Positions 4,970 through 31,873 of a stretch of 40,042 bases of DNA are shown one piece after another. The notes beneath the pieces were generated by a model. That model made no database searches. It had not been told where the DNA came from and saw only the letters and a list, made by a program, of their open reading frames with translations. This DNA is from a virus, in the IMG/VR virus record IMGVR_UViG_3300029770_000022. One strand, 5' to 3'. Within the stretch, counting starts at the first letter, position 1. Each line of letters begins with the position of its first letter. The translations under genes and the position numbers were made by a program.

Positions 4970-5161
4970 ATGACAGATAACCAGATCAAGTCCCCAGACC
5001 TGTGTGAGCGCTGCCGGTACTCTGACGAGTTGTGCGAGGCTCCGCGATCCTGCACAGGCTGCAAGCAGCACATCAATGCGCCGACGATCCTTTATCTCTG
5101 CCGGTGCGACACCGTAAAAGACGGAACGGTGTGTAAGTATTTTGAGGAGGCGGAAATGTGA
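4970..5161 (+). CDS. Small Cys-rich protein (possible zinc binding)
   Basis: AGGAGGGAG SD. CxxC...CxxC...CxC pattern in 63 aa. Confidence 0.55.
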   Translation: MTDNQIKSPDLCERCRYSDELCEAPRSCTGCKQHINAPTILYLCRCDTVKDGTVCKYFEEAEM

Positions 5162-5418
5162 AAGAAACGATGGTACTTATCAACCCGCGCAAAGGCGACG
5201 GAAACGGCGTGTGTGACGCGCGAGTTCCGCTGCGTGAGCTTGTCCCAGGCCTGCGGCTGACGCTTCCAGTCAATGGAACTGGCCACAACGATCCCCCGGT
5301 GTCGCATAGATGCGTCGTCCGTCATGTGCATTATGCGCACCACTGGATCCGAGTAGAGTACAAAATGAGCGGTCAGACGCTGTCGGAGTGCTTCAAATTT
5401 GTAGAGGAGGCGAGTTAG
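5158..5418 (+). CDS. Hypothetical protein
   Basis: GTGA-coupled start, 86 aa. Confidence 0.5.
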   Translation: MKETMVLINPRKGDGNGVCDARVPLRELVPGLRLTLPVNGTGHNDPPVSHRCVVRHVHYAHHWIRVEYKMSGQTLSECFKFVEEAS

Positions 5419-5419
5419 C

Positions 5420-5869
5420 ATGTATTATGGCTGCGACATGGGCTATAAAATGGCCGAAAATGATCTTCGCAACTATGCTGCAAACAAGGCCGCAATTATC
5501 AACCTTCGGGAGCAGATTAAAAACTTGGAGGATGAGGCCGGACAGATTCGGAGCGCGACAGCAGATGCAACGCCGGTGCAGGGCGGCGGCTCCACGCGTG
5601 AGGATCGGATGCTGTCTAACATCCATATGCGGGACAAGCTCGCCGGGGCGTTGAAATCTGCGGAATCGGATGTTTCCAGAGTGGAGCGGGCACTTGCGCT
5701 GCTGGATGACGAAGAGCGGCTGATCCTAAACCGGTTCTACATCAATCGACACAAAGACAGCCTTTTCAGGCTGATGGAGGAGCTAGGAATCGAGCAATCC
5801 GCAGTTTACGAGCGAAAAAGCAAGGCCTTCTTCCATTTTCGGAAAGCACTATACCCGGCAGCGCTCTAA
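5420..5869 (+). CDS. Sigma-70 region-4-like transcription regulator (ArpU/RinA-type late regulator by position)
   Basis: GAGGAGG SD. C-terminal ERLILNRFYI...LMEELGIEQSAVYERKSKAFFHFRKAL resembles a region-4 HTH. It sits just upstream of the packaging genes. Confidence 0.55.
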   Translation: MYYGCDMGYKMAENDLRNYAANKAAIINLREQIKNLEDEAGQIRSATADATPVQGGGSTREDRMLSNIHMRDKLAGALKSAESDVSRVERALALLDDEERLILNRFYINRHKDSLFRLMEELGIEQSAVYERKSKAFFHFRKALYPAAL

Positions 5870-5907
5870 AATCCGGAAAAAAACCGGAAGAAATCCGAAA
5901 GGATCTG

Positions 5908-5916
5908 TGCTACAAT
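5908..5916 (+). promoter_or_regulatory. Extended -10 element TGcTACAAT (candidate late promoter; weak -35)
   Basis: Read in the 114-nt gap between the regulator gene and the ParB-MTase gene. Confidence 0.3.
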
Positions 5917-5938
5917 GGTATCGTAAATAATTGCGCAT

Positions 5939-5962
5939 GGCACCGGAGGAATCTTCGGTGCC
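5939..5962 (+). promoter_or_regulatory. Leader stem-loop (10 bp including one G-U pair, GAAT loop) followed by TTT
   Basis: ggcaccggag gaat cttcggtgcc lies between the candidate -10 and the RBS of 5984. Confidence 0.4.
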
Positions 5963-5983
5963 TTTGCTATTGGAGGAAATCGC

Positions 5984-7138
5984 GTGGACGTTAAAAATAT
6001 TCCGCTGGGCAATATTGTCCCATATGCCAAAAACGCAAAAAAGCACGATAAGACGCAGATTAAAAACGTCGCGGAGAGCATCAAGCAGTACGGCTTTGTG
6101 CAGCCGATTGTCGTTGACCGTGATGGCGTGATCGTTATTGGACACTGCCGCGCCCTGGCGGCAAAGCAGCTCGGCATGACGGAAGTGCCGTGTGTCTGCG
6201 TGGATGACCTCACGCCGGAACAGGTGAACGCTCTGCGGCTGGTGGATAACAAGAGCAACGAGAGCGACTGGGACTTCGACCTGCTGGCGGAGGAGCTGCC
6301 TGGTCTTGACCTGTCGGCGTTTGACTTTGATTGGGGGCTGCGAGACGAGCTGGACAATTCCGTAGTGGAGGACGATTATGACCCTGCGCCACCAGCAGAA
6401 CCAAAGAGCAAGCTGGGCGATGTGTATCAACTTGGCAACCATCGGCTTATGTGCGGCGATAGTACGTCTCTGGCAGATGTGCAAAAGCTTGTGGGTGGGG
6501 CACAGATGGACTTGCTCCTCACGGATCCCCCGTATGGCGTCGACTATACCGGGAAAACGAAGAGCGCACTTAAAATAGAAAATGATAGCAAAACAGATGA
6601 TGAGTTTATTGAGTTTCTCAAAAGTGCTTTCTTGGCTGCTGATGCAGTGATGAAGCCAGGCGCTGTGTTCTACATCTGGCACGCCGATTCAAAAGCATAT
6701 GTTTTTAGAATGGCGTGCCAGATGGCGGGGTGGGAAGTTCGACAGGTTCTTATCTGGGTAAAGAACGCAATGGTGATGGGTCGGCAGGACTACCAGTGGA
6801 AGCACGAGCCGTGCTTGTATGGCTGGAAAAGTGGCGCCGGCCATTTGTGGGCTTCAGATCGTAAGCAGACCACTGTGTTGGAATTTGACAGACCGTCACG
6901 CAACGCAGAACACCCTACAATGAAGCCCATTCCACTTTTTGACTACCAAATCAAAAACAACACTAAAGGTGGAGACACAGTGCTTGACTTGTTTGGCGGA
7001 TCTGGGACAACGATTATGGCATGCGAGCAGAACGGAAGGAACGGCTATTGCATGGAGTACGATCCGAAGTATGTCGATGTCATTATTGATCGATGGGAGA
7101 AATTCACCGGTAAAAAGGCGGTGTTGCTGAGTGACTAA
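5984..7138 (+). CDS. ParB-like nuclease domain fused to N6A/N4C DNA methyltransferase
   Basis: GGAGG then GTG start. The N-terminus (KKHD...QYGFVQPIVVD...GHCRALAAKQLG) is ParB-like. Downstream motifs: LLTDPPYG, HPTMKP, LDLFGGSGTT. Confidence 0.9.
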   Translation: MDVKNIPLGNIVPYAKNAKKHDKTQIKNVAESIKQYGFVQPIVVDRDGVIVIGHCRALAAKQLGMTEVPCVCVDDLTPEQVNALRLVDNKSNESDWDFDLLAEELPGLDLSAFDFDWGLRDELDNSVVEDDYDPAPPAEPKSKLGDVYQLGNHRLMCGDSTSLADVQKLVGGAQMDLLLTDPPYGVDYTGKTKSALKIENDSKTDDEFIEFLKSAFLAADAVMKPGAVFYIWHADSKAYVFRMACQMAGWEVRQVLIWVKNAMVMGRQDYQWKHEPCLYGWKSGAGHLWASDRKQTTVLEFDRPSRNAEHPTMKPIPLFDYQIKNNTKGGDTVLDLFGGSGTTIMACEQNGRNGYCMEYDPKYVDVIIDRWEKFTGKKAVLLSD

Positions 7139-7379: not shown

Positions 7380-7644
7380 GGTGTGCGGCTTTTTTGATAT
7401 CTGCGCAGATACGCTAGAGACATGGTGCAAACGCACATATAAAGAGAGTTTTTCGAAGGTTTTTGCTAAAAAGAGAGGCGCGGGGAAAATTTCCCTCCGC
7501 AGAATGCAATGGAGGCTTGCGGAGAAAAATGCAACAATGGCTATTTGGCTCGGAAAGCAGTACCTCGGCCAGCGGGATGCGCCGGAGGACGCAATCGACA
7601 CCGAAGACACGGACGCATACCTGAAAGAAGCGGGTATTGAATGA
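7306..7644 (+). CDS. terS: Terminase small subunit
   Basis: AGGAGGG SD. MARPRKEIDQKQFESLC...TLETWCKR...MAIWLGKQYLGQ is typical of HTH-type small terminases. Lies directly upstream of terL. Confidence 0.8.
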   Translation: MARPRKEIDQKQFESLCALQCTIDEVCGFFDICADTLETWCKRTYKESFSKVFAKKRGAGKISLRRMQWRLAEKNATMAIWLGKQYLGQRDAPEDAIDTEDTDAYLKEAGIE

Positions 7645-8930
7645 AATCAACGACGCTGCGGCCACAGTTCGGGGAGAAGCACAAGGCGTATATTTACGCC
7701 GCTACCCGCTGCACGATATCCGTCGCCGAGGGCGCCGTTCGCGCGGGCAAAACCATCGACAATATCGCGGCCTTTGCGGCGCTCATCAACAAGGGAACAC
7801 CGGATAGGATCCACCTTGCTACCGGATCGACGGCGGCGAATGCAAAGCTCAACATTGGCGACGCGAACGGCTTCGGGCTTGAGTACCTTTTCCGGGGACG
7901 CTGCCGGTGGACAAAATATAAAGGCAATGAAGCGCTCGTGATTAAATCTCACGGGCGTGATTACGTTGTTATCTTCGCAGGCGGCGCGAAAGCGGACAGT
8001 TTCAAAAAGATTCGCGGCAACTCCTACGGCATGTGGATTGCAACCGAGATCAACCTCCACCACGAGGACACGATCAAGGAAGCTTTTAACCGCCAACTTG
8101 CGTCGAAGGTTCGCCGGGTATTTTGGGACTTGAACCCGTCCTCACCTGGGCACTGGATATACAGAGCATATATAGATAGATTCGCGGAGCAATTCGGCGA
8201 GCGGTATAATTACCAGCATTTCACCATCCGCGATAATGCAACGATCACGCCGCAGCGCCTCGCGGAGATTGAGAGCCAGTACGACCCGTCAAGCATATGG
8301 TACCGGCGGGATATCCTCGGAGAGCGCTGTATTGCCGAGGGCCTTGTCTACCCGATGTTCGATGATTCCTGCGTCGTTGATGCCGCCCATGAGAGCGGAG
8401 GAGAGTATTATATATCCGTGGACTACGGCACGCTGAATCCATTTTCTGCGGGCTTGTGGTGTCTTAAAAATGGGGTTGCGACGCGCATCCGGGAGTATTA
8501 CTATTCCGGGCGCGAGACAAACCGGCAGAAGACGGACAGCGAGTATTATGCGGAGCTGGAAAAGCTGGCGGGCGACCTTCCGATAGAGTGCATTATCATT
8601 GACCCGTCGGCGGCGTCTATGATCACAGAGATTATCCGGCGCGGGAGGTACATCGTCCGCAAGGCCAATAATAACGTGCTGCCGGGAATAAGTTACACGG
8701 CGGCGCTTTTGCAGGCCGGTCGGCTGAAGATCGGGAGCAGCTGCAAGGACGCAATCCGGGAATTCGGCCTGTATAGCTGGGATGATAAGTCGCAGGAGGA
8801 CAAAGTCATCAAAGAGAATGACCATTGCATGGACGACATCCGCTATTTTTCATTTACCGTTCTGCGGCAAAAACTATTTTACGAGATGAGGGATTACCGT
8901 GATGCACTGGAAACGGTGGATGATCAATAA
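7641..8930 (+). CDS. terL: Terminase large subunit (PBSX/Terminase_3-like)
   Basis: Walker A GAVRAGKT, 429 aa, ATGA overlap with terS. Confidence 0.9.
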   Translation: MKSTTLRPQFGEKHKAYIYAATRCTISVAEGAVRAGKTIDNIAAFAALINKGTPDRIHLATGSTAANAKLNIGDANGFGLEYLFRGRCRWTKYKGNEALVIKSHGRDYVVIFAGGAKADSFKKIRGNSYGMWIATEINLHHEDTIKEAFNRQLASKVRRVFWDLNPSSPGHWIYRAYIDRFAEQFGERYNYQHFTIRDNATITPQRLAEIESQYDPSSIWYRRDILGERCIAEGLVYPMFDDSCVVDAAHESGGEYYISVDYGTLNPFSAGLWCLKNGVATRIREYYYSGRETNRQKTDSEYYAELEKLAGDLPIECIIIDPSAASMITEIIRRGRYIVRKANNNVLPGISYTAALLQAGRLKIGSSCKDAIREFGLYSWDDKSQEDKVIKENDHCMDDIRYFSFTVLRQKLFYEMRDYRDALETVDDQ

Positions 8931-9123
8931 ATTTCTCCCGGCGTGGTGCCGGTCGGAGCTGATGGACGAGAATCGGAGGCTCGCGGAAAAGATAGAAAAA
9001 CAGGCGGCATTGATTGACCGCCTGAACGCGTACATTGACGGCTTGCAGGATGCTCTATGCCGCCAGCCGAGAATCATCATTAACGGAGGTGACGCGCATG
9101 GGGATCATGAGCGCAATCTTTGA
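8902..9123 (+). CDS. Small coiled-coil protein between terL and portal
   Basis: 73-74 aa ORF overlapping both neighbours by about 26-30 nt. Confidence 0.4.
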   Translation: MHWKRWMINKFLPAWCRSELMDENRRLAEKIEKQAALIDRLNAYIDGLQDALCRQPRIIINGGDAHGDHERNL

Positions 9124-10492
9124 CGCAAATAAAATCCACAATTTCGAACAGGCGTTCGGCGCGAAAGACCTGACCACGCCGGAGATGCGTGCAGCCATCG
9201 TCGATTGGTATGCGTTGTATTACAACAGTGCACCGAGCGATAAAGAGGATCCATGCCAGCGGCTCCCCGTTGCGATTGTGTCCAAGATTTACAAGGCCAT
9301 GTTTGGCGAGTATGCAACGCAGGCGAAGGACGAGTTCGTGCTTTCCCTCTTGGACGAGCTGTCTGCACAGCGCAAGGCCGCAACGCAGCAGATGCTGACC
9401 GGCGGGCAGTGTTTCCTCAAGCCGGTTATTGGCGACGGGGGGATTACCTTCGGCATCGTCAACCGGCAGAATTATATTCCGCTGGCCAGAGATGCGCACG
9501 GGAATATTACAGACATCGGAACGGCGGAGATCACCGCAGTCGGGAAGACGATATATACGCTTCTCGAGCGCCGGACGGTGGATGCACGTGGATATCTCAC
9601 AATTGAGAGCCGCCTGTTCCGGTCGGAAAGCCGGGGCATCCTCGGAACGCAGATTCCGCTTGCAACGCTCGATAAGTACGCGGAGCTTGTGCCGGAGCTG
9701 CGATACAGTGAGCCGGTCGGCTCTGTAGGCCTTATCCCGCTGCGCAGCCCTGCGGAAAACTGCGTAGACGGTTCTCCGGATGCGGTATCTGTTTATGCTG
9801 CTGCGGTTGGGCTGATTCACAACATCAACCGTAACGAGGCGCAGCTCAACGTTGAGTTTGAAAACGGCGAAAGCCGCCTGATCGTGCCGGATACAATGCT
9901 CCGGAGGCGACCGGACGGCACGCGGGGGCTGGATGCGCATGTATTTGTCGGTGCGCCGCCTGACGTGGACGGGAAGAGCACAATTACCCCATTCTCTCCT
10001 GGCCTGCGAGAACAAAATTTCCTCGCACGGAAAACTGAGTACCTGCGCAATATAGAGAGCCTGATCGGCCTCAAGCGCGGGCTTCTGTCCGATGTCGAGG
10101 TTGCAGAGAAAACCGCGACGGAGATCACGAGCAGCGCAGGCGAATACAACCTGACAGTTATTGACTTTCAGGGGCAATGGGAAGCCGCCGTCCGCGAGGC
10201 GGTTCGCGTATGCGACATCCTCGGGCGCATTTACAAACTGCACAGCGGCACGATTGACCCCGACAAGGACGTTGCGATCTCGTGGGGCAATGGGGTCCTC
10301 TATGACGAGGATCAGACTTGGGCGGACTATAAGGCGATGGTGTCGGCCGGTTGGCTCAAGCCGGAGATCGCACTCGGCTGGTATTTTGATATGCCTACAG
10401 AGAAGGAAAGCGACCTTGCGAAGATACGCGAACGGTATATGCCGGAAGCAGAAGAAATTGACGATGAAGGAGGAACTGACGATGGGCGGTAG
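9098..10492 (+). CDS. Portal protein
   Basis: GGAGGTG SD before ATG 9098. 464 aa, immediately after the terminase. Called on position and size; acidic C-terminus. Confidence 0.8.
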   Translation: MGIMSAIFDANKIHNFEQAFGAKDLTTPEMRAAIVDWYALYYNSAPSDKEDPCQRLPVAIVSKIYKAMFGEYATQAKDEFVLSLLDELSAQRKAATQQMLTGGQCFLKPVIGDGGITFGIVNRQNYIPLARDAHGNITDIGTAEITAVGKTIYTLLERRTVDARGYLTIESRLFRSESRGILGTQIPLATLDKYAELVPELRYSEPVGSVGLIPLRSPAENCVDGSPDAVSVYAAAVGLIHNINRNEAQLNVEFENGESRLIVPDTMLRRRPDGTRGLDAHVFVGAPPDVDGKSTITPFSPGLREQNFLARKTEYLRNIESLIGLKRGLLSDVEVAEKTATEITSSAGEYNLTVIDFQGQWEAAVREAVRVCDILGRIYKLHSGTIDPDKDVAISWGNGVLYDEDQTWADYKAMVSAGWLKPEIALGWYFDMPTEKESDLAKIRERYMPEAEEIDDEGGTDDGR

Positions 10493-10889
10493 AGGATCGA
10501 GCGGCGGAGTTGGCTCGAATGCATTTAAGGGGAGCCGGGACGGGGCGATCCTCGGCGGTAAACCGAGGGAGATCGAATCGTACCAGAGAGAGGCGCGAGG
10601 ATGGAGCCCTGCGTATAGTAAGGATGAAATCCTGGAGGCTAAAACAGATGGATACGGGAATTTGACTTTCACTTATGCAAGAGCGGACTCTTACGAAAAG
10701 ACGGCGAAAACAAACCGAACCGTGTACACGAAGTATACTCTACAAGCCGGTGCCGTAAACGGAGAAACCTTCGGTATAGATTGGAGCAAAGTGCAATCCA
10801 TTTCCGGGCAGACATACGGATTGCGGGATGCGGCCAAAAAGGCGGGGCTTTCTTGGGATGGCACAAGAAAGCAGTGGCGCCGTAAATGA
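10482..10889 (+). CDS. Gly-rich N-terminus protein with a DUF5710-like C-terminal motif
   Basis: GAAGGAGGA SD. MGGRGSSGGVGS... and a C-terminal GQTYGLRDAAKKAGLSWDGTRKQW (pattern AK..G..WD...K.W). Confidence 0.6.
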   Translation: MGGRGSSGGVGSNAFKGSRDGAILGGKPREIESYQREARGWSPAYSKDEILEAKTDGYGNLTFTYARADSYEKTAKTNRTVYTKYTLQAGAVNGETFGIDWSKVQSISGQTYGLRDAAKKAGLSWDGTRKQWRRK

Positions 10890-11527
10890 TAAACTTTGAG
10901 AATCTGGACAAGGCAGTATTTCCCGGCGACGGCCCATATTGCATCCCGGAGATCGCGCCAACGGAAATATATCCACATGGGGTGGAGTTTATCCCCATGA
11001 ACTATGCGCAGAGCACAAAAGACCCAGCGGGGAAGGTTGTGCACTGCTTTGTGGATGATTATCAGTTCATTCGGTACTGGAATCAGCCGGATAAATACAT
11101 ACCGCGATTGTCGCAATTCGCTGGCGTGTGCGCCCCTGATTTCTCGACCTACACAAATATGCCGCTCGCAATGCAGATTTATAACCACTATAGGAAGCAC
11201 TGGCTTGCGGCATACTGGCAGCTCCACGGGCTGACGGTTTATCCGACGATCTCGTGGAGCGACGAGAAAAGCTATGACTGGTGCTTTGACGGGGAACCTA
11301 TCGGCGGTATTGTCGCGGTTTCAAGCGTCGGGACACAGATCGGAAAAGAAAGTCAGCGACTTTTCCTGCGCGGATATGAAGAGATGATGAAACGACTTGA
11401 CCCGAAATGGGTCATTTTTTACGGTATCGTTCCGCCAGAATGCGACTGGAATGTGATACGCGTAAGGCCATATCAAGATGAAATCAAGAAACGGAGTCCT
11501 GCCAATGCTTCGCGCGGAAGAGATTGA
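10886..11527 (+). CDS. DUF4417 domain protein
   Basis: HCFVDDYQF..YW..P..Y...L..F......PDFSTYTNMPLAMQIYNHYRKHWLAAYWQ matches the remembered DUF4417 consensus. Confidence 0.7.
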   Translation: MINFENLDKAVFPGDGPYCIPEIAPTEIYPHGVEFIPMNYAQSTKDPAGKVVHCFVDDYQFIRYWNQPDKYIPRLSQFAGVCAPDFSTYTNMPLAMQIYNHYRKHWLAAYWQLHGLTVYPTISWSDEKSYDWCFDGEPIGGIVAVSSVGTQIGKESQRLFLRGYEEMMKRLDPKWVIFYGIVPPECDWNVIRVRPYQDEIKKRSPANASRGRD

Positions 11528-13091
11528 AGCCCTGCGAGATGCTTCGACCGATCTTCTTCGGCCTGTGATCGAATACCTCCTGCGGGATATTGCCGAGCGT
11601 GTCGCAAAGGCCGGGCAGCTCACTGCGACTGCGCAGTATGAAACGTGGAAGTTGCAGCAGCTCGGCGTGTCACAGCGGGATTTGCGTACTTACCTCAAAA
11701 AGGCGCTCAAGGTATCGAACGCCAAGCTAAAGCAGCTTCTCACGCAGAGTGCCGAGGCTGGCTATAATTACGACCTGAGTTCCCTGCCGACGGTGCGGGC
11801 GATCCCGTTTGAAGAAAACGAGGCCGTGCAGCAGATTGTCCGGGCGGCAATTGCACAGACGCAGGGAACGCTTGAGAACCTCACGCAGACCCTCGGCATG
11901 GTTGACCCTTACGGCAATGTGAATCCGCTGCGCGACACCTACCGCAAGTGCATGGATTACGCCTTTGAGCAGGCGTCCAGCGGCGCGGCAGATTATAATA
12001 CAGCCATCCGGGAGGCCACGCGCAACCTCGCCGCCAAGGGCGTGGAATTCATCGACTACGAATCCGGTGTTACGACGAGCTTGGAGGCGGCGGTGCGGCG
12101 GAACATCATGGGTGCGCTCGGCATGATACAGGAGCAGATCAGCCAGTACAACCACGACCAATACGGTGCGACCGGCTGGGAGATCGACGCGCACAGCAAC
12201 TCCGCGCCCGACCACGAGCCGATACAGGGCAAGCAGTACACGGACGCGGAATATGAGGTGCTGAATAACAGCCTCGTGCGCCGCATCGGTACGCTGAACT
12301 GCGGCCACTCTGCGCACCCGATTGTGTACGGCGCAAGTGCCCCGCAGTACACGCCGGAAGAGCTGGAAGAAATGCGGCAGAAAAACGAGACGGGCATCAA
12401 CTTCCGGGGCAAGCATTACACCGGCTACGAGGCCACGCAGAGGCAGCGGAGGCTTGAGCGTGCGATTCGTGCGCAGAAGCGGAAAATTCTGATTGACAAG
12501 GCCATCGGCGATTCGGAAAAGCTGGAAACCGACCAGATCAAGCTGCAACTTTTACAGCAGGATTACAAAGCCTTTTCCAAGGCTGCGGGTCTGCGCACAC
12601 AGCACGAACGGCTTGAAAAGGTGGGGTTTGCATGGAAAGAGGCCACGGAAGCAAAAAATACGTATCAATCTATTGCAAAGCAAGCGAATTCGATGTATGA
12701 TACAGGCAGTGAGGCCGGGAACATCGCCGCATGGCAACGCGACAAGCCAATCCGTGAGAGTATACGCGCCGACAAGCAACGGCTGATCATCAATCAGGAA
12801 AAGCAGTCCCGGCACATAAAAGGGACGGACGGATATGTGCAGGGCCGAAGCTATGTTACAGTAGACAAGGACGAATTGCAAGCTATCGTAAACCAATATG
12901 CAGGAACAGGAGAAATCCAGCGCTCTGTAAAGGGTGTGTTCATGCAGAAGGAAATTATTACGATAGACCGCCAGATTGGTGTAAGCATAAACCCAGAAAC
13001 CCTAGAAGAAACGCCGACAAATCGAGCATATATACACTATAGCAAATCTGGCTCACACGTTGTGCCGACGGCGAAGGAGATGAAGAAATGA
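11478..13091 (+). CDS. Head morphogenesis / minor capsid protein (SPP1 gp7 / Mu F-like) with a C-terminal polymorphic-toxin-type-50-like domain
   Basis: Position after the portal, 537 aa; alternative start ATG 11505. The last ~98 aa (12795-13088) read QEKQSRHIKGTDGY..GRSY...AGTGE...IG...T..AYIHYSKSGSHVVP, resembling the Ntox50 consensus. Confidence 0.75.
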   Translation: MKSRNGVLPMLRAEEIEALRDASTDLLRPVIEYLLRDIAERVAKAGQLTATAQYETWKLQQLGVSQRDLRTYLKKALKVSNAKLKQLLTQSAEAGYNYDLSSLPTVRAIPFEENEAVQQIVRAAIAQTQGTLENLTQTLGMVDPYGNVNPLRDTYRKCMDYAFEQASSGAADYNTAIREATRNLAAKGVEFIDYESGVTTSLEAAVRRNIMGALGMIQEQISQYNHDQYGATGWEIDAHSNSAPDHEPIQGKQYTDAEYEVLNNSLVRRIGTLNCGHSAHPIVYGASAPQYTPEELEEMRQKNETGINFRGKHYTGYEATQRQRRLERAIRAQKRKILIDKAIGDSEKLETDQIKLQLLQQDYKAFSKAAGLRTQHERLEKVGFAWKEATEAKNTYQSIAKQANSMYDTGSEAGNIAAWQRDKPIRESIRADKQRLIINQEKQSRHIKGTDGYVQGRSYVTVDKDELQAIVNQYAGTGEIQRSVKGVFMQKEIITIDRQIGVSINPETLEETPTNRAYIHYSKSGSHVVPTAKEMKK

Positions 13092-13285
13092 CGAAATTAT
13101 TCGAATATTTCGGGAAGAATATTGCTATTGTTGATGCAGAAGGCACAAAATGGCAAGGCCACGCTGCGGCATACACACCGGCCATCGACAGCGAGAACGG
13201 AGAAGAAGAAATTGCCATCCAAACAAAGAATGGATTGATTGGGTTTTCTGCGTCCGATATTGACAAAATCGAATATGCAGATTAG
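13088..13285 (+). CDS. Small acidic protein, ATGA-coupled to the toxin-like domain gene (candidate cognate inhibitor)
   Basis: 65 aa, followed directly by a terminator. Confidence 0.6.
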   Translation: MTKLFEYFGKNIAIVDAEGTKWQGHAAAYTPAIDSENGEEEIAIQTKNGLIGFSASDIDKIEYAD

Positions 13286-13313
13286 GGACTATGAACTGTC
13301 ATAGTCCTTTTTT
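13286..13313 (+). terminator. Rho-independent terminator
   Basis: GGACTATGA actg TCATAGTCC followed by TTTTTT. Confidence 0.8.
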
Positions 13314-13335
13314 GCATCCGTTTGGAGTAATTAAC

Positions 13336-13452
13336 ATGATGGATCTATACTTGAAATGCCGAATCATCGGATGGATAATCCGGCTCGGGATTCTGGCAAT
13401 CGCAATCTTGGCCGTGGTTGCTTACGGGATATACCTCGTTAAAAATCGCTGA
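13336..13452 (+). CDS. 38-aa single-pass membrane micro-protein (moron candidate)
   Basis: GGAG lies 8 nt before the ATG. MMDLYLKCRIIGWIIRLGILAIAILAVVAYGIYLVKNR. Bracketed by two terminators. Confidence 0.45.
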   Translation: MMDLYLKCRIIGWIIRLGILAIAILAVVAYGIYLVKNR

Positions 13453-13485
13453 GGTCAACTCAGCGGAACAACTGAATGATGATTT

Positions 13486-13516
13486 AAGGCACTGTGTAAA
13501 ACACGGTGCCTTTTTT
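13486..13516 (+). terminator. Rho-independent terminator
   Basis: GGCACTGTG taaaa CACGGTGCC (one G-U pair) followed by TTTTTT. Confidence 0.8.
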
Positions 13517-13541
13517 CATACCCATTTGGCCTATCTGCGGG

Positions 13542-13584
13542 CCTAAAACGCAGGACGGCGGGAGCTGGCGACCTCCTAAAACGC
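13542..13584 (+). repeat. Two copies of CCTAAAACGC spaced 33 bp apart, upstream of the scaffold/capsid genes
   Basis: Copies at 13542-13551 and 13575-13584, read directly. Confidence 0.6.
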
Positions 13585-13606
13585 CTAGCCGGGAAAGGAA
13601 AAAACA

Positions 13607-14161
13607 ATGAAAACGGAATTTTTACAGAATTTCAAGGTTGGCGATCAGGCTCTTCCGAAGGAGATCATTGACGCAATCCTCGCCGAGAATGGCAGGGACA
13701 TTGAGGCGGCGAAAAAGCCGTTTGCGGACTATGAATCTGTCAAGGAGCAGCTCAAGACCGCCAAGGAAGGGCTGAAAGCCTTTGAGGGCGTGAGCGTGGA
13801 GGACTTGCAGGGCAAGATCACCACACTCACCAAGCAGCTTGCCGACAAGGACAAGGCATGGCAGGCAAAGCTCGACGGGATGGCCTTTGATGGACGCATC
13901 AAGGACGCGATCACCGCCGCCAATGGCAGGAACGCCAAGGCAATCGCAGCGCTGCTTGACGTGGATGCCCTCCGCGCCAGCAAGAACCAGGACGGCGACA
14001 TCAAGGCCGCTCTGGAATCCCTCAAGAAGGAAAACGGCTATCTGTTTGAAGATGATCCCCCGGCGCGTTATGCGTCCGGCACGGGCACGCAGCAGATGAC
14101 CGGTCAGAACGATGCTCCGGACTCTCTCGCCGGAGCGTTACATGCAAAATACGACAAATAA
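13607..14161 (+). CDS. Scaffolding protein
   Basis: 184 aa, coiled-coil, K/E/A-rich, immediately upstream of the capsid gene. Confidence 0.75.
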   Translation: MKTEFLQNFKVGDQALPKEIIDAILAENGRDIEAAKKPFADYESVKEQLKTAKEGLKAFEGVSVEDLQGKITTLTKQLADKDKAWQAKLDGMAFDGRIKDAITAANGRNAKAIAALLDVDALRASKNQDGDIKAALESLKKENGYLFEDDPPARYASGTGTQQMTGQNDAPDSLAGALHAKYDK

Positions 14162-14179
14162 GAAAGGATGATTTAACAA

Positions 14180-15178
14180 ATGTCTATTACTCTCGCAGAA
14201 GCCAAGGTCGGCATGGCCGACAAGGTCGATCAGATGATCGTCGACGAGTTCCGCCGCAGCTCCCTGCTGCTGGACAAGCTCGTTTTTGACAACGCAATCT
14301 CCCCCGGCACGGGCGGCTCCACGCTGACCTATGGTTACATCCAGCTCAAGACGCCCTCCACCGCTGCCGTCCGCGAGATTAACAGCGAGTACACCGCAGG
14401 CGAAGCAAAGCGCGAAAAGAAGACCGCAAGCGCCGTCATTATGGGCGGCTCCTTTGAGGTCGACCGTGTGCTCCAGAACACCTCCGGCGCGGTTGACGAG
14501 CTGGCTTTCCAGGCTCAGCAGAAAATCAAGGCAACCAGCAACTACTTCCACAATCTCGTTATCAATGGCATTGCAGCAGCCTCCGGCACGGGATATGTAC
14601 CCAAAACATTCGACGGCCTGCGCAAGCTGCTTGATGGATCCTCCAACAGCTTTACCACGGATATCGACCTCTCCGATGCGGCAAAGGTGACCAGCAACGC
14701 CAACGCTTTCATCGATCAGCTCGACCAGCTCGTTCACGCGATCGACGGCGATACCTCCATGCTCCTGATGAATGGTGATATGCTGCTCAAGGTGCGCGCT
14801 GCGGCTCGCCGCGCCGGATACTACGAGCGCACGAAGGACGACTTCGGCCGCGTTGTTGAAACCTTCGCTGGCATCCCGCTGATGGACTGCGGCAAGTACT
14901 TCAACGGAACCAGCTCCGTCGATGTTATCGGCACGTCCACGGCCAGCGCAAGCGCAGCCGGTACTTCCAGCATTTATGCTGTCAATATCGCGCTCGACGG
15001 CTTCCACGGCATTTCCCCGGTCGGAACTGGCGTGATCAACTCCTACATGCCGGACATGACGGCCCCCGGCGCAGTCAAGAAGGGCGAGGTCGAGCTTGTT
15101 GCTGGCGTAGTCCTGAAGAACACGCTCAAGGCGGCGGCTCTGAACGGTATCATTCTGAAGCCGAAAACTGGCGGCTAA
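14180..15178 (+). CDS. Major capsid protein (HK97-fold type by context)
   Basis: 332 aa, follows the scaffold gene. Very high GC3: 31/40 in the first 40 codons by hand count. Confidence 0.8.
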   Translation: MSITLAEAKVGMADKVDQMIVDEFRRSSLLLDKLVFDNAISPGTGGSTLTYGYIQLKTPSTAAVREINSEYTAGEAKREKKTASAVIMGGSFEVDRVLQNTSGAVDELAFQAQQKIKATSNYFHNLVINGIAAASGTGYVPKTFDGLRKLLDGSSNSFTTDIDLSDAAKVTSNANAFIDQLDQLVHAIDGDTSMLLMNGDMLLKVRAAARRAGYYERTKDDFGRVVETFAGIPLMDCGKYFNGTSSVDVIGTSTASASAAGTSSIYAVNIALDGFHGISPVGTGVINSYMPDMTAPGAVKKGEVELVAGVVLKNTLKAAALNGIILKPKTGG

Positions 15179-15195
15179 AGCTGGAGGTAACGCCC

Positions 15196-15555
15196 ATGAC
15201 GGATTTTGAATTTTATCGCACCCAGTACATGGGCGATTCCATCGCCGAAGCCGATTTCCCTCGCCTGATTCGTCGGGCGGGGGAAACGCTTGCCCGCTAT
15301 AAACGTATCTATTCCGTCACTTCCCCTCAGGAGGATGCGGAGGCTATGGCGGCGTGCGCTATGGCTGATGCTCTGGCGTACTATGACGCAGCTTTAAACG
15401 GCGCTGGCGGCGCCGTCAGCTCGGCAAGCATCGGAAGTGTGTCCGTCAGCTATGCAGGCGCAGCAAGCGCGGCGGACCTGTCACAAAGTGCGCAGGAAGC
15501 GGAGCTTTTCCGCTGCGCTTGCCTGTATCTGGATATCTACAGGGGGTGCTGCTGA
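15196..15555 (+). CDS. Head-tail connector / head completion protein
   Basis: 119 aa. Called on position after the capsid gene. Confidence 0.55.
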   Translation: MTDFEFYRTQYMGDSIAEADFPRLIRRAGETLARYKRIYSVTSPQEDAEAMAACAMADALAYYDAALNGAGGAVSSASIGSVSVSYAGAASAADLSQSAQEAELFRCACLYLDIYRGCC

Positions 15556-15923
15556 TGTTGTCCCTTCGACAGCGCGGCCCAGTGGATTACCGGCTCTGCA
15601 CGCAGACGGTGACCGTGTACCACAAGGACGGAGACGCCTACACGCGTACTGTATACGACCGCGCTTTTCTGGATTTCAAGAAAACACAGAACGTAGACAA
15701 GACAGGCAGCAGCGAGAGCAATTCCTTTTTGCTCGTCATCCCGTGCGACCATCAGACGGTGCACGTTGGGGACAAAGTTTTGCTCGGGATTGGCGCGGAG
15801 ATCACCACGCGGGAAGCTTGGGCGGCTTTCGTCCCTGTCAAAGTGCCCGGTCTGTGCGTGGTCAAGTACGTCGATCCCAAATACTGGCGCGGGGATATGG
15901 TGCACATCGAGGCGGGAGGTTGA
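15555..15923 (+). CDS. Head closure / neck protein
   Basis: TGATG coupling, 122 aa. Call is position-based. Confidence 0.5.
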   Translation: MLSLRQRGPVDYRLCTQTVTVYHKDGDAYTRTVYDRAFLDFKKTQNVDKTGSSESNSFLLVIPCDHQTVHVGDKVLLGIGAEITTREAWAAFVPVKVPGLCVVKYVDPKYWRGDMVHIEAGG

Positions 15924-15924
15924 T

Positions 15925-16386
15925 ATGCCGACCTACATCAGAATCAACACAAAAGGCATAGATAATCTTGTACGGCGGCTCGGCTCACAGCAGCTCGCGC
16001 AGCGGGCGCAGATCGCAATGACGCGAGAAGTCGACAAGCGCATCGGACGGTATATGGCTTTCCGTACCGGTGTGATGTCCGGCAAAGCAAAGCGCATGAT
16101 TTCCCCCTCGCAAATCCTCGTTGATACGCCATACGCGCGGTATCAGTATTACGGCAAGGTGATGGTCAACTCCAAGACCGGCAAGGGGCCGCGCGTGATT
16201 CCCGGCGTTGGTTTCCGCTGGCCGAAGGGCGCGATTCTCAAGGTCACGGACAGGCCGTTGCAGTATGACACCAGCAAAAATGAAAAAGCCGGCCCTTATT
16301 GGGACAAGGCGCTCATGGACAACGAAAGCACCGAAATCTGTGAATCCGTTGCAAATGAGATTATCCGTGCGGCAAGGGGGGAATGA
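15925..16386 (+). CDS. Neck/tail-attachment protein (HK97 gp10-like)
   Basis: GGGAGG SD. The DTPYARYQYYG motif is typical of this family. Confidence 0.55.
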   Translation: MPTYIRINTKGIDNLVRRLGSQQLAQRAQIAMTREVDKRIGRYMAFRTGVMSGKAKRMISPSQILVDTPYARYQYYGKVMVNSKTGKGPRVIPGVGFRWPKGAILKVTDRPLQYDTSKNEKAGPYWDKALMDNESTEICESVANEIIRAARGE

Positions 16387-30295: not shown

Positions 30296-31873
30296 TTATC
30301 TTCGCAATAGAAATCCGATTGCTCCATTCAGAATTATGAGTTTCCCGTGTTCGGATAAGTCTGTAATTGGCAGGGCATTTGATGATAAATCCGAACAGGC
30401 CGCCCACCCGGTAGCATCGATCATGTCGATGTAACTTACCTGTTTGCAATCCTTGACATTAAAGAAAATAGCTACTCGATCATCATACAGATATACCGCA
30501 TTTACAAATATTTCGACTATTTTTTTCCGGTACTCGTCGTCCATCAGATCCCCGCGCCGCATTGACCGGAGCCATTTGGCAACATCATCTTTCTTGATCT
30601 CGACACGGCTGGCAATGCGCAGGGAGGATAAGTCATCCTCCAACTGTGCGCGGTATTGCTCCGCTTCCTCAATTCTCGCATTGATGCGCTTGACGGCGGC
30701 ATCTGCCGAGGTCTTGATCAGTGCGTCGACAAGCTTATCTAATTCTGCATCTGCGTCTTTTATTTTCTTTTCCAGGCGCTTTATTCCGGACGCATCAAAG
30801 CTTTTTTTGTATTCTGCTACAACGGCGTCGGCAATCTCCTCGATGCGGGAATCCGTTAGGACATACTCCGTTATCTGCTCTGCGATGTACCACTCTAAAA
30901 AGTCCTTGCGCTCGTTTTTCTTTTTACATCCGTGGCGCTTTTTCTTCTCGGCGCAGGCGTAGTAATTGTAGACTGTTCCGGATTTGCTTTTTCCGCTCTC
31001 GCCGACCATTGGTGCTCCGCAGTGCCCGCAGAAAAGTTTCCCGTGTAGGATATATTCGACCTTTGCTTTTTCGTGTCCCGGCGCTCTTGCCTTCAGCGCA
31101 AGGCGCTTTTTTGCGCGCTCCTTCAGCTCCAGCGGCACGATTGGCGGGTATAGGTCTGCCACAACAAGCTCGTCCTTAAACAAAAATGCCCCGGCGTACT
31201 TGTCATTTGCTATCATCCTGGCAATAGCATTCATGGTAAAATCCGCGCCCTTGCGCGTGTGATATCCTCTGCTCTTGCACTCATTTATGATCTCTCTCGA
31301 GGGTCTCCCCTCGGCGTATGCCTCGTGGATAAACCTTACAACCTCCGCTTCCCTGTCTACGATAACATACCGCTTTCCTTGTAGGCGATACCCATACGGA
31401 GCCATGCCCCCGAGAGAAAGCCCCTTCTCCGCATTCTGCCGCATCCCGCGCCGGACATTTTGCGATAGCTGGCGGCTGTATTCCTCGGCCATGGCTTCAA
31501 GGATGGCCTCAAGCAGGATGCTCTCATTCCCCTCGTCGATGCCCTCCGTTACGGAGAGGACGCGAACGCCGTATTTACGCAGCTCTTTTTTGTAGATTGC
31601 GCTGTCGTAACGGTTGCGGGCAAAGCGGTCGAGCTTCCAGACAAGAATGTACTGGAAGGTCTTTTTCTTTGCGTCGGCAATCATCTGCTGGAACGCCGGT
31701 CTCGTTTCTGCATGCCTGCCGGAGATTGCCCGGTCGGCATACTCCTGCACCACGCGGAAGCCCCGCTGCGCGGCAAACTCGCGGCACGTCTTTACTTGTC
31801 CTTCAATGGATTGATCGTTCTGCCCTGCTGAGCTGTATCTGGCATAAACGACAACATCTGCAAGCGTATCCAT
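30296..31873 (-). CDS. int: Large serine recombinase (integrase)
   Basis: N-terminal resolvase domain VVYARYSSAGQNDQSIEGQ...LVWKLDRFARN, a recombinase domain, a CGHCG...C...C zinc ribbon, and a C-terminal coiled coil. 525 aa. Confidence 0.9.
   Translation of the reverse strand: MDTLADVVVYARYSSAGQNDQSIEGQVKTCREFAAQRGFRVVQEYADRAISGRHAETRPAFQQMIADAKKKTFQYILVWKLDRFARNRYDSAIYKKELRKYGVRVLSVTEGIDEGNESILLEAILEAMAEEYSRQLSQNVRRGMRQNAEKGLSLGGMAPYGYRLQGKRYVIVDREAEVVRFIHEAYAEGRPSREIINECKSRGYHTRKGADFTMNAIARMIANDKYAGAFLFKDELVVADLYPPIVPLELKERAKKRLALKARAPGHEKAKVEYILHGKLFCGHCGAPMVGESGKSKSGTVYNYYACAEKKKRHGCKKKNERKDFLEWYIAEQITEYVLTDSRIEEIADAVVAEYKKSFDASGIKRLEKKIKDADAELDKLVDALIKTSADAAVKRINARIEEAEQYRAQLEDDLSSLRIASRVEIKKDDVAKWLRSMRRGDLMDDEYRKKIVEIFVNAVYLYDDRVAIFFNVKDCKQVSYIDMIDATGWAACSDLSSNALPITDLSEHGKLIILNGAIGFLLRR

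Follow-up and report, generated by a model that had tools for sequence, protein, structure and literature searches.

A MuF-fused Ntox50 domain and its predicted Sm-like immunity protein form an exchangeable gene cassette in a temperate siphovirus

Does a phage head protein carry a toxin, and is the small gene behind it the antidote? This question is raised by a pair of overlapping genes in the IMG/VR record IMGVR_UViG_3300029770_000022, a stretch of 40,042 nucleotides of viral DNA that we refer to as the window. The window phage is a temperate siphovirus with complete head, tail, and lysis modules, a large serine recombinase, and a CI/Cro-type helix-turn-helix protein. A preliminary description of this DNA had placed a gene for a head-morphogenesis protein with a toxin-like C-terminus at 11478..13091 and a short open reading frame (ORF) at 13088..13285, overlapping it by ATGA, and had read the second as a cognate inhibitor or immunity protein of the first. 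Both ORFs are exactly as described and encode 537 and 65 amino acids (aa), respectively; the stop codon of the first and the start codon of the second share the ATGA, and the two are translationally coupled. On the evidence set out below, we consider it likely that the locus is a MuF-type polymorphic toxin-immunity cassette made up of an Ntox50 tRNase and its 65-aa cognate immunity protein.

The N-terminal part of the 537-aa protein belongs to the phage head. Residues 13-366 match the Pfam family PF06152 (Phage_min_cap2, "MuF2") with an E-value of 7e-71, and PHROGs assigns the protein to PHROG 581, "minor head protein". Its earlier designation as gp7-like holds at the level of the MuF superfamily, in which PF06152 and PF04233, the family of SPP1 gp7, are united (PMC5576092), but the family itself is PF06152 rather than PF04233. 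At the other end of the protein, residues 438-530 match the Pfam family Ntox50 (PF15542) over the entire profile (positions 1-92 of 92; E 7.2e-29; 100.8 bits versus a cut-off of 22.2). This bears out the Ntox50-like C-terminus that had been recognized from three motifs, QEKQSRHIKGTDGY, QYAGTGE, and IHYSKSGSHVVP, all of which are present. The catalytic residues were placed by alignment to MafB2-CT and to the C-terminal domain of YxiD (YxiD-CTD): H446, H520, K523, and H527 of the window align to H447, H521, K524, and H528 of YxiD, the catalytic histidine triad H446/H520/H527 is kept, and the C-terminal motif consists of H520, K523, and H527-V-V-P530. YxiD-CTD is a metal-dependent tRNase in which H447, H521, H528, K446, and K524 are each needed for activity, and mutation of the aligned YxiD residues abolishes both tRNase activity and toxicity (PMC12700104). 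When the domain was modeled alone with AlphaFold2 (AF2) on 112 sequences, the model reached a predicted local distance difference test (pLDDT) score of 95.5, and a Foldseek search with it returned only two matches in the Protein Data Bank (PDB) with E < 1e-3, namely YxiD-CTD (9v8i_B; E 5e-8, TM-score 0.80, root-mean-square deviation (rmsd) 1.5 Å) and MafB2-CT (8hhj_B; E 1e-5, TM-score 0.68). Because the Pfam match, the catalytic motif, and the predicted fold agree, we regard the C-terminus as a true Ntox50 domain. By analogy with YxiD-CTD, it would be an RNase and toxic. The domain is basic, with an isoelectric point (pI) of 9.5 and a net charge of +5.

A 2012 catalogue, whose immunity column is empty for this domain, predicts that Ntox50 is an RNase of the BECR fold and that its delivery is through the type II secretion system/MafB, the type VI or type VII secretion system (T7SS), or MuF (PMC3482391). 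Ntox50 is also listed among the C-terminal domains of temperate-phage MuF toxins, for example in the Clostridioides phage phiC2 (PMC5576092, PMC3482391). The fusion of Ntox50 to phage head-morphogenesis domains, which the preliminary description had mentioned, is documented in these two papers, and the MuF-Ntox50 architecture had thus been published before: phiC2 is mentioned by Zhang 2012, and Jamet 2017 includes Ntox50 in the MuF toxin domains. The advance made here is modest and consists of an immunity family for phage-borne Ntox50, an Sm-like acidic-loop design parallel to that of YxxD, the inhibitor of YxiD, the exact bounds of the cassette, and orphan immunity genes in hosts and in a satellite phage. 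The empty immunity cell of the 2012 catalogue would be filled by the family of the 65-aa protein, PHROG 1865.

PHROG 1865 is listed in PHROGs as of unknown function, neither Pfam nor NCBIfam holds a curated family for the 65-aa ORF, and its homologues are called "hypothetical" in deposited phage genomes. Searched exhaustively by profile, the family comprises 143 clusters at 50% identity, and nearly all members are free-standing proteins of 63-75 aa, with a few tandem doublets. The stretch AYTPAIDSENGEEE is invariant among the close relatives of the 65-aa protein. Both the acidic character of this protein (pI 4.37, net charge -7.4) and the terminator behind its gene had been noted before and are confirmed: the charge of the protein is complementary to that of the toxin domain (pI 4.4 versus 9.5), and the hairpin at 13284-13309 has an 11-bp stem followed by a T run and a fold z-score of -6.0, with 0 of 200 shuffled sequences folding as well.

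The most direct evidence on the role of the 65-aa protein comes from the company that its family keeps. When loci were retrieved by the MuF N-terminus, a procedure that is unbiased as to the C-terminus, the family was found downstream in none of the 10 MuF relatives (60-96% identical in the N-terminus) that carry other C-terminal extensions, and the single Ntox50 relative in this set, L034, has a family member downstream. Eight deposited phages picked by their Ntox50 match, from Clostridioides, Aeribacillus, Campylobacter, Staphylococcus, Streptococcus, and Fusobacterium hosts, have a family member directly downstream in all eight cases. With the window and a C. perfringens prophage, there are 11 Ntox50 loci that were ascertained independently of the small ORF, and the resulting linkage table (11/0/0/10) has a Fisher p value of 2.8e-6. 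The family also follows Ntox50 where the domain is fused to PF04233 instead of PF06152. The 65-aa family tracks Ntox50, not the MuF scaffold. A function as an accessory of the head module is rejected on the 0/10 count in MuF relatives with other C-termini.

Three further observations concern gene structure and naming. In the C. perfringens prophage (L035 1856-4567), a NUMOD4/HNH_3 endonuclease gene lies between the MuF2 gene (320 aa) and an Ntox50 ORF (123 aa), so that the toxin gene appears to have been split by a homing endonuclease; the 63-aa immunity gene is intact. The phage phiC2 has the same three-part layout as the window, including a homologue of the 65-aa ORF. In the RefSeq records of phiC2 (NC_009231.1), phiMMP01 (NC_028883.1), and phiMMP03 (NC_028959.1), the MuF-Ntox50 gene is called "head maturation protease", while the GenBank originals of these C. 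difficile phages give "putative head morphogenesis protein", and the toxin domain is mentioned in neither; the RefSeq label is probably a propagating annotation error.

If the small gene is the partner of the toxin domain, the two should also move together, and they do. By blastn, the window and the related phage L031 are 95% identical over 9000-12650, share no similarity over 12651-13460, and are 98% identical from 13461 onward; in the dissimilar interval, L031 carries an unrelated C-terminal domain and a 66-aa ORF. The IMG/VR relatives L023-L033 combine the same MuF2 scaffold with at least five further types of C-terminal cassette, and each type brings a 53-67-aa ORF of its own, located before the conserved scaffold gene. 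From the breakpoints in L031 and the small ORFs that the other relatives have of their own, we conclude that toxin domain and partner move as a single unit, the behavior by which polymorphic toxin systems are defined. The window gene shares further traits with the MuF polymorphic toxins, namely an N-terminus of the MuF superfamily ("MuF2"), a C-terminal toxin, an ORF of <150 aa directly downstream, a site in the head module of a temperate siphovirus, and C-termini that differ among near-identical phages; it differs from them in lying ~1 kb away from the portal gene, with a 141-aa ORF and a DUF4417 gene in between.

The alternative cassettes are candidate new toxin-immunity pairs. One of the C-termini is DUF6883, which has been described as a BECR RNase (2026 preprint) and is paired with a 53-aa ORF; another carries an HSHPSG motif that suggests a JAB/MPN-like metallopeptidase; and three have no Pfam match. 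The partner ORFs of all alternatives are unannotated.

The pair is also found outside intact phages. In many gut-metagenome samples, contigs L001-L006 (~5080-6680) contain a prophage remnant of a gut bacterium, with an acetyltransferase gene on one side and a type I-C CRISPR-Cas locus on the other. The remnant is homologous to window ~12260-13765, is flanked by housekeeping genes on one side, and consists of a MuF fragment, a free-standing 132-aa Ntox50 ORF that keeps the catalytic histidine residues, the 65-aa ORF in intact form, and ~160 bp from the start of the scaffold gene. The ratio of nonsynonymous to synonymous substitution rates (dN/dS) between remnant and window is 0.11-0.19 for both genes. 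Among the remnants, seven residues of the toxin vary, some of them in the conserved motifs AGTG and GRSY, and none in the 65-aa protein; at the nucleotide level, variability is 10/396 in the toxin versus 1/195 in the small ORF, a difference that is suggestive but, with three haplotypes only, not significant.

A pair that survives in the chromosome after the loss of every other phage gene, with a free-standing toxin that keeps its catalytic histidines, low dN/dS values in both genes, and a terminator and promoter-like sites of its own, could be an addiction or abortive-infection module of the lysogen, akin to a type II toxin-antitoxin system, that stabilizes the prophage or kills upon superinfection; the MuF fusion would then be incidental or a regulatory tether, and there would be no delivery. 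We find this improbable, given that at least 19 phage loci have Ntox50 as an in-frame extension of the capsid-targeting MuF domain within the late head operon, that the toxin gene comes first and its small partner, in contrast to type II antitoxins, contains no DNA-binding domain, and that the remnant toxin variants hit the AGTG and GRSY motifs while the immunity protein stays invariant. Immunity genes that have no toxin beside them, described below, fit protection from an incoming toxin and not addiction. A type II toxin-antitoxin system as such is judged unlikely on the gene order, the MuF fusion, and these toxin-less orphans.

Three further contexts hold members of the family. In a Defluviitaleaceae metagenome-assembled genome (MAG; L013 4899-6703 / L014), an array lies between ABC-transporter genes, with HEPN/nucleotidyltransferase pairs nearby; its order is a family-Ntox50 fusion, a family member, Ntox50, and two more family members, and the fused Ntox50 is catalytically dead, with R/H/E/Y at the key positions. 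In a Clostridiales MAG (L007 4890-5457), two tandem family genes of different subtypes stand beside a decayed Ntox50 tail (NMAYVQYSNSDTHGAE), and the island has no intact toxin. Finally, the 13.5-kb S. pyogenes satellite phages Javan475/Javan504 (L040 3004-3204) carry an orphan family member (E 5e-25) and no Ntox50; this orphan may protect against the toxin of a helper or a rival phage. Occurrence as orphans, in arrays, and in fusions is a hallmark of the immunity genes of polymorphic toxins. Given the strict co-occurrence with Ntox50, the joint swapping, the orphans, the natural fusion, and the fold and acidic loop considered next, the 65-aa ORF is very probably the matching antidote of the Ntox50 toxin, in line with the cognate immunity layout that had been proposed for it.

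How might so small a protein silence the toxin? An AF2 model of the 65-aa protein on 126 sequences (pLDDT 95.7) consists of a helix and five strands, and its top Foldseek matches all have the Sm fold: SmE/F/G, LSm8, Gemin6/7, the LSm domain of Edc3, and YaeO (6JIE). The highest TM-score, 0.76 (rmsd 1.2 Å), belongs to an Hfq-like protein of M. jannaschii. For the 65-aa homologue, the depositors of the OlisA2 phage had independently chosen the label "gemin6", the name of an Sm-fold protein, and for the toxin "bacterial toxin". Searches of the PDB sequences with the 65-aa protein and its family profile gave LSm matches only, all sub-significant, and neither YxxD nor MafI2. The loop between strands β2 and β3, which in the model is formed by the stretch that close relatives keep invariant, is rich in acidic residues family-wide (41% D/E versus 17% elsewhere), with at least three acidic residues in 123 of the 126 members, and the family has a median pI of 4.4.

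The T7SS immunity protein YxxD provides the closest parallel. In B. subtilis 6633, the LXG toxin YxiD (PDB 9V8I; PMC12700104) ends in a domain of the same Pfam family as that of the window, with a matching predicted fold and histidine triad, and the acidic β2-β3 loop of YxxD blocks its active site (PMC12700104). Like the 65-aa protein, YxxD is Sm-like, is encoded directly downstream of its toxin, and has an acidic β2-β3 loop (~residues 33-46); by eye, the loops ETDNGLDEDD in YxxD and IDSENGEEE here share the pattern D-[ST]-[DE]-N-G-x-acidic. The two proteins also have structural neighbors in common (YaeO 6JIE, LSm8 4M77, and Hfq). They differ in size, YxxD having 110 aa with an extra helix and strand that the 65-aa protein does not have, and in the presumed route of the toxin, which is T7SS for YxiD and, by analogy with other MuF toxins, the phage capsid here. 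The 65-aa protein would thus work like YxxD, an analogy that we rest on the fold class of the model and the chemistry of the loop because the sequence homology is not significant. Membership of the 65-aa protein in the YxxD family is not claimed, as homology could not be demonstrated at the sequence or profile level. The resemblance may be convergence or very remote homology, which are indistinguishable here. The YxxD family is confined to Bacillales LXG loci, where YxxD homologues follow Ntox50. The second structural relative of the toxin domain, MafB2-CT of Neisseria meningitidis (PDB 8HHJ), is likewise an Ntox50 toxin domain; it differs in being secreted by means of the MafB N-terminal domain and in having an unrelated, helical immunity protein, MafI2, two helices of which block the site.

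Since the predicted fold is that of Sm, LSm, and Hfq proteins, with Hfq-like and LSm proteins as the top matches and weak profile matches to LSm8, the 65-aa protein could also be an RNA-binding protein, or a chaperone that loads the toxin-bearing MuF protein into the procapsid, rather than an inhibitor. Dedicated chaperones exist for other polymorphic toxins, such as the LXG toxins of T7SS. The strong acidity of the family, its most conserved surface being the acidic loop and not an RNA-binding pocket, and the net charge of -7 of the protein itself argue against RNA binding. A loading function, for its part, does not explain why the family occurs in chromosomal arrays, orphan islands, and the satellite, none of which has a capsid to load, nor why it is absent from close MuF relatives with other toxins, which would need packaging equally. 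We hold this reading to be very improbable, and we note that chaperone and immunity roles are not mutually exclusive.

In the mechanism that we favor, the MuF2 N-terminus would bring the 537-aa protein into the procapsid via the portal, in few copies, and the Ntox50 domain would act as a BECR-fold, histidine-dependent tRNase of the YxiD/MafB2 type. The 65-aa inhibitor would prevent the toxin from acting in the cell that produces it and would shield lysogens, most likely by plugging the basic active-site cleft with its invariant acidic β2-β3 loop and blocking tRNA binding, as YxxD does with YxiD. The toxin would be co-ejected with the DNA into the newly infected cell. Recombination exchanges the toxin domain and the immunity gene as one unit between the constant body of the MuF gene and the scaffold gene. 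The analysis itself establishes the domain identities, the intact catalytic residues, the two predicted folds, the strict linkage, and the swapping of the cassette; RNase activity, toxicity, direct binding via the loop, packaging, and joint ejection of toxin and DNA are what we infer. Experimental precedent comes from Apk2/IapK/Aph1, (p)ppApp synthetases that are the only MuF toxins tested experimentally (PMC12226406). They resemble the window pair in the MuF N-terminus, the C-terminal toxin, and a downstream, cognate-specific immunity protein that occludes the active site (PMC12226406); they differ in that the toxin is an alarmone synthetase and not an RNase and that there are two immunity genes instead of one.

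Several points weigh against this interpretation. In the toxin domain, R445 replaces K446 of YxiD. The correlation of toxin and small-ORF divergence (Mantel r = 0.81, p = 1e-4, n = 11) counts in favor of the pair, but it is also expected for any two tightly linked genes. As regards YxxD, the comparison of the 65-aa family with a 48-sequence YxxD alignment gave an hhalign E-value of 0.066 and a probability of 0.8%, the alignment covering the helix, β1, and β2 only; profile-profile comparison with a single YxxD homologue was not significant; hmmsearch gave no cross-matches between the two families; and YxxD is absent from the top 50 fold matches of the 65-aa model. With respect to delivery, SPP1 gp7 is the only protein of this kind for which packaging and ejection are known; it lacks a toxin, binds to the portal, and occurs at 1-2 copies per capsid. 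The delivery of MuF toxins during DNA injection is put forward in the literature explicitly as a hypothesis. Lastly, the MuF gene (start 11478) does not adjoin the portal gene (end 10492), ~1 kb with two ORFs lying between them; portal-MuF adjacency is, however, a contextual regularity that an insertion has disrupted here and not a structural requirement.

The toxin could, moreover, serve the phage itself. Ntox50 might be an RNase that acts on host or rival-phage RNA, for host translation shut-off, counter-defense, or exclusion, with no interbacterial role and with the small protein timing its activity. The domain is widespread in phages of four host phyla, which is compatible with such a use. 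This reading shares its molecular mechanism with the toxin-immunity cassette that we favor and differs from it in the purpose of delivery only, and the present data discriminate neither; the restriction of MuF toxins to temperate phages (PMC5576092) fits a benefit to the lysogen somewhat better. We regard a phage-serving RNase as possible.

More tentatively still in its scope, the 65-aa family and YxxD could be two branches of an ancient Sm-like class of Ntox50 immunity proteins in which the acidic loop mimics the RNA backbone, with the chromosomal and satellite copies defending against injected toxin; we put this forward as a doubtful but conceivable extension. If it were true, MuF-Ntox50 toxins and their immunity genes would form a three-way arms race between phage, host, and satellite that can be read from gut metagenomes. 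MuF toxins are abundant in human-gut prophages, only the (p)ppApp synthetase class having been tested and virion delivery being a hypothesis, and the locus offers a compact pair for a delivery experiment: a 117-aa predicted tRNase domain and a 65-aa predicted inhibitor, for which structural relatives have been solved. In practice, the finding is useful mainly for annotation and for the choice of an experimental system; the existing model is confirmed conceptually. The features of the locus and of its surroundings are collected in Table 1.

Table 1. Coordinates of the toxin-immunity cassette and of neighboring genes in the window
Feature	Position	Strand	Basis or remark
MuF-family polymorphic toxin gene, 537 aa: N-terminal head-morphogenesis domain, helical linker, predicted C-terminal Ntox50 RNase domain	11478..13091	+	PF06152, PF15542, PHROG 581
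MuF2 (Phage_min_cap2) domain, constant capsid-targeting part	11514..12575	+	Pfam match
Predicted Ntox50 (BECR-fold) RNase domain, residues 438-530	12789..13067	+	Pfam, alignments, AF2, Foldseek
Predicted catalytic codon H446	12813-12815	+	alignment to YxiD-CTD, MafB2-CT
Predicted catalytic codon H520	13035-13037	+	alignment to YxiD-CTD, MafB2-CT
Predicted catalytic codon K523	13044-13046	+	alignment to YxiD-CTD, MafB2-CT
Predicted catalytic codon H527	13056-13058	+	alignment to YxiD-CTD, MafB2-CT
Predicted cognate immunity gene, 65 aa, minimal Sm-like barrel	13088..13285	+	ATGA overlap, PHROG 1865, AF2, linkage
Acidic β2-β3 loop of the 65-aa protein, P31-E41, PAIDSENGEEE, predicted toxin-binding plug	13178..13210	+	between strands E21-30 and E41-46 in the model
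Intrinsic-terminator-like hairpin and T run, directly 3' of the immunity gene	13284..13315	+	dG -24.4 kcal/mol
Possible 38-aa hydrophobic ORF (MMDLYLKCRIIGWIIRLGILAIAILAVVAYGIYLVKNR) inside the cassette	13336..13452	+	GGAG 8 nt upstream of ATG
Swappable toxin-immunity cassette: toxin C-terminus from ~aa 392, 65-aa ORF, terminator, small ORF	12651..13460	+	blastn versus L031
Terminase	7641..8930		
Portal gene	9035..10492		
DUF4417 protein	10886..11527		E 9e-56; also part-matches PHROG 940 "nuclease"
Scaffold gene	13607..14161		
Major capsid gene, SU10_MCP-like	14180..15178		
Large serine recombinase	30296..31873	-	

Behind the first terminator, the cassette contains a promoter-like site at 13351-13379 (10/12 matches), and a second terminator at 13486-13512 is stronger than the first. 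The 38-aa ORF in this region has an equivalent of 38-39 aa at the same place in L001-L006, as predicted by gene callers; it has no family match, and L008 does not have the region. We treat it as a possible gene that the cassette does not require.

Besides the tail module, the window encodes a CHAP endolysin. The relatives of the phage stem from metagenomes of the human gut and from MAGs of Clostridiales and Oscillospiraceae, and a megablast search of window 9000-16000 against deposited phages gave no match. The ~1 kb between the portal and MuF genes (10480-11527) encodes a 141-aa ORF, with a Gly-rich N-terminus (MKEELTMGGRGSSGG...) and a weak match to DUF5710, and the DUF4417 protein. L031 and L022 have this stretch, and L023, L025, and L034 have no counterpart of it; it resembles a moron or accessory insertion, by which the portal and MuF genes, usually adjacent, have been separated. 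In the capsid gene zone, the DNA of window 14104-15175 shows no similarity to that of L031, between flanks that are 95-98% identical; the head module contains here a second mosaic replacement, one that affects the capsid protein itself. Upstream of the terminase genes, at 5984-7138, a ParB N-terminal domain and an N6/N4 DNA methylase form a fusion; anti-restriction or epigenetic modules of this kind are typical of phages, and this one is unrelated to the toxin-immunity pair.

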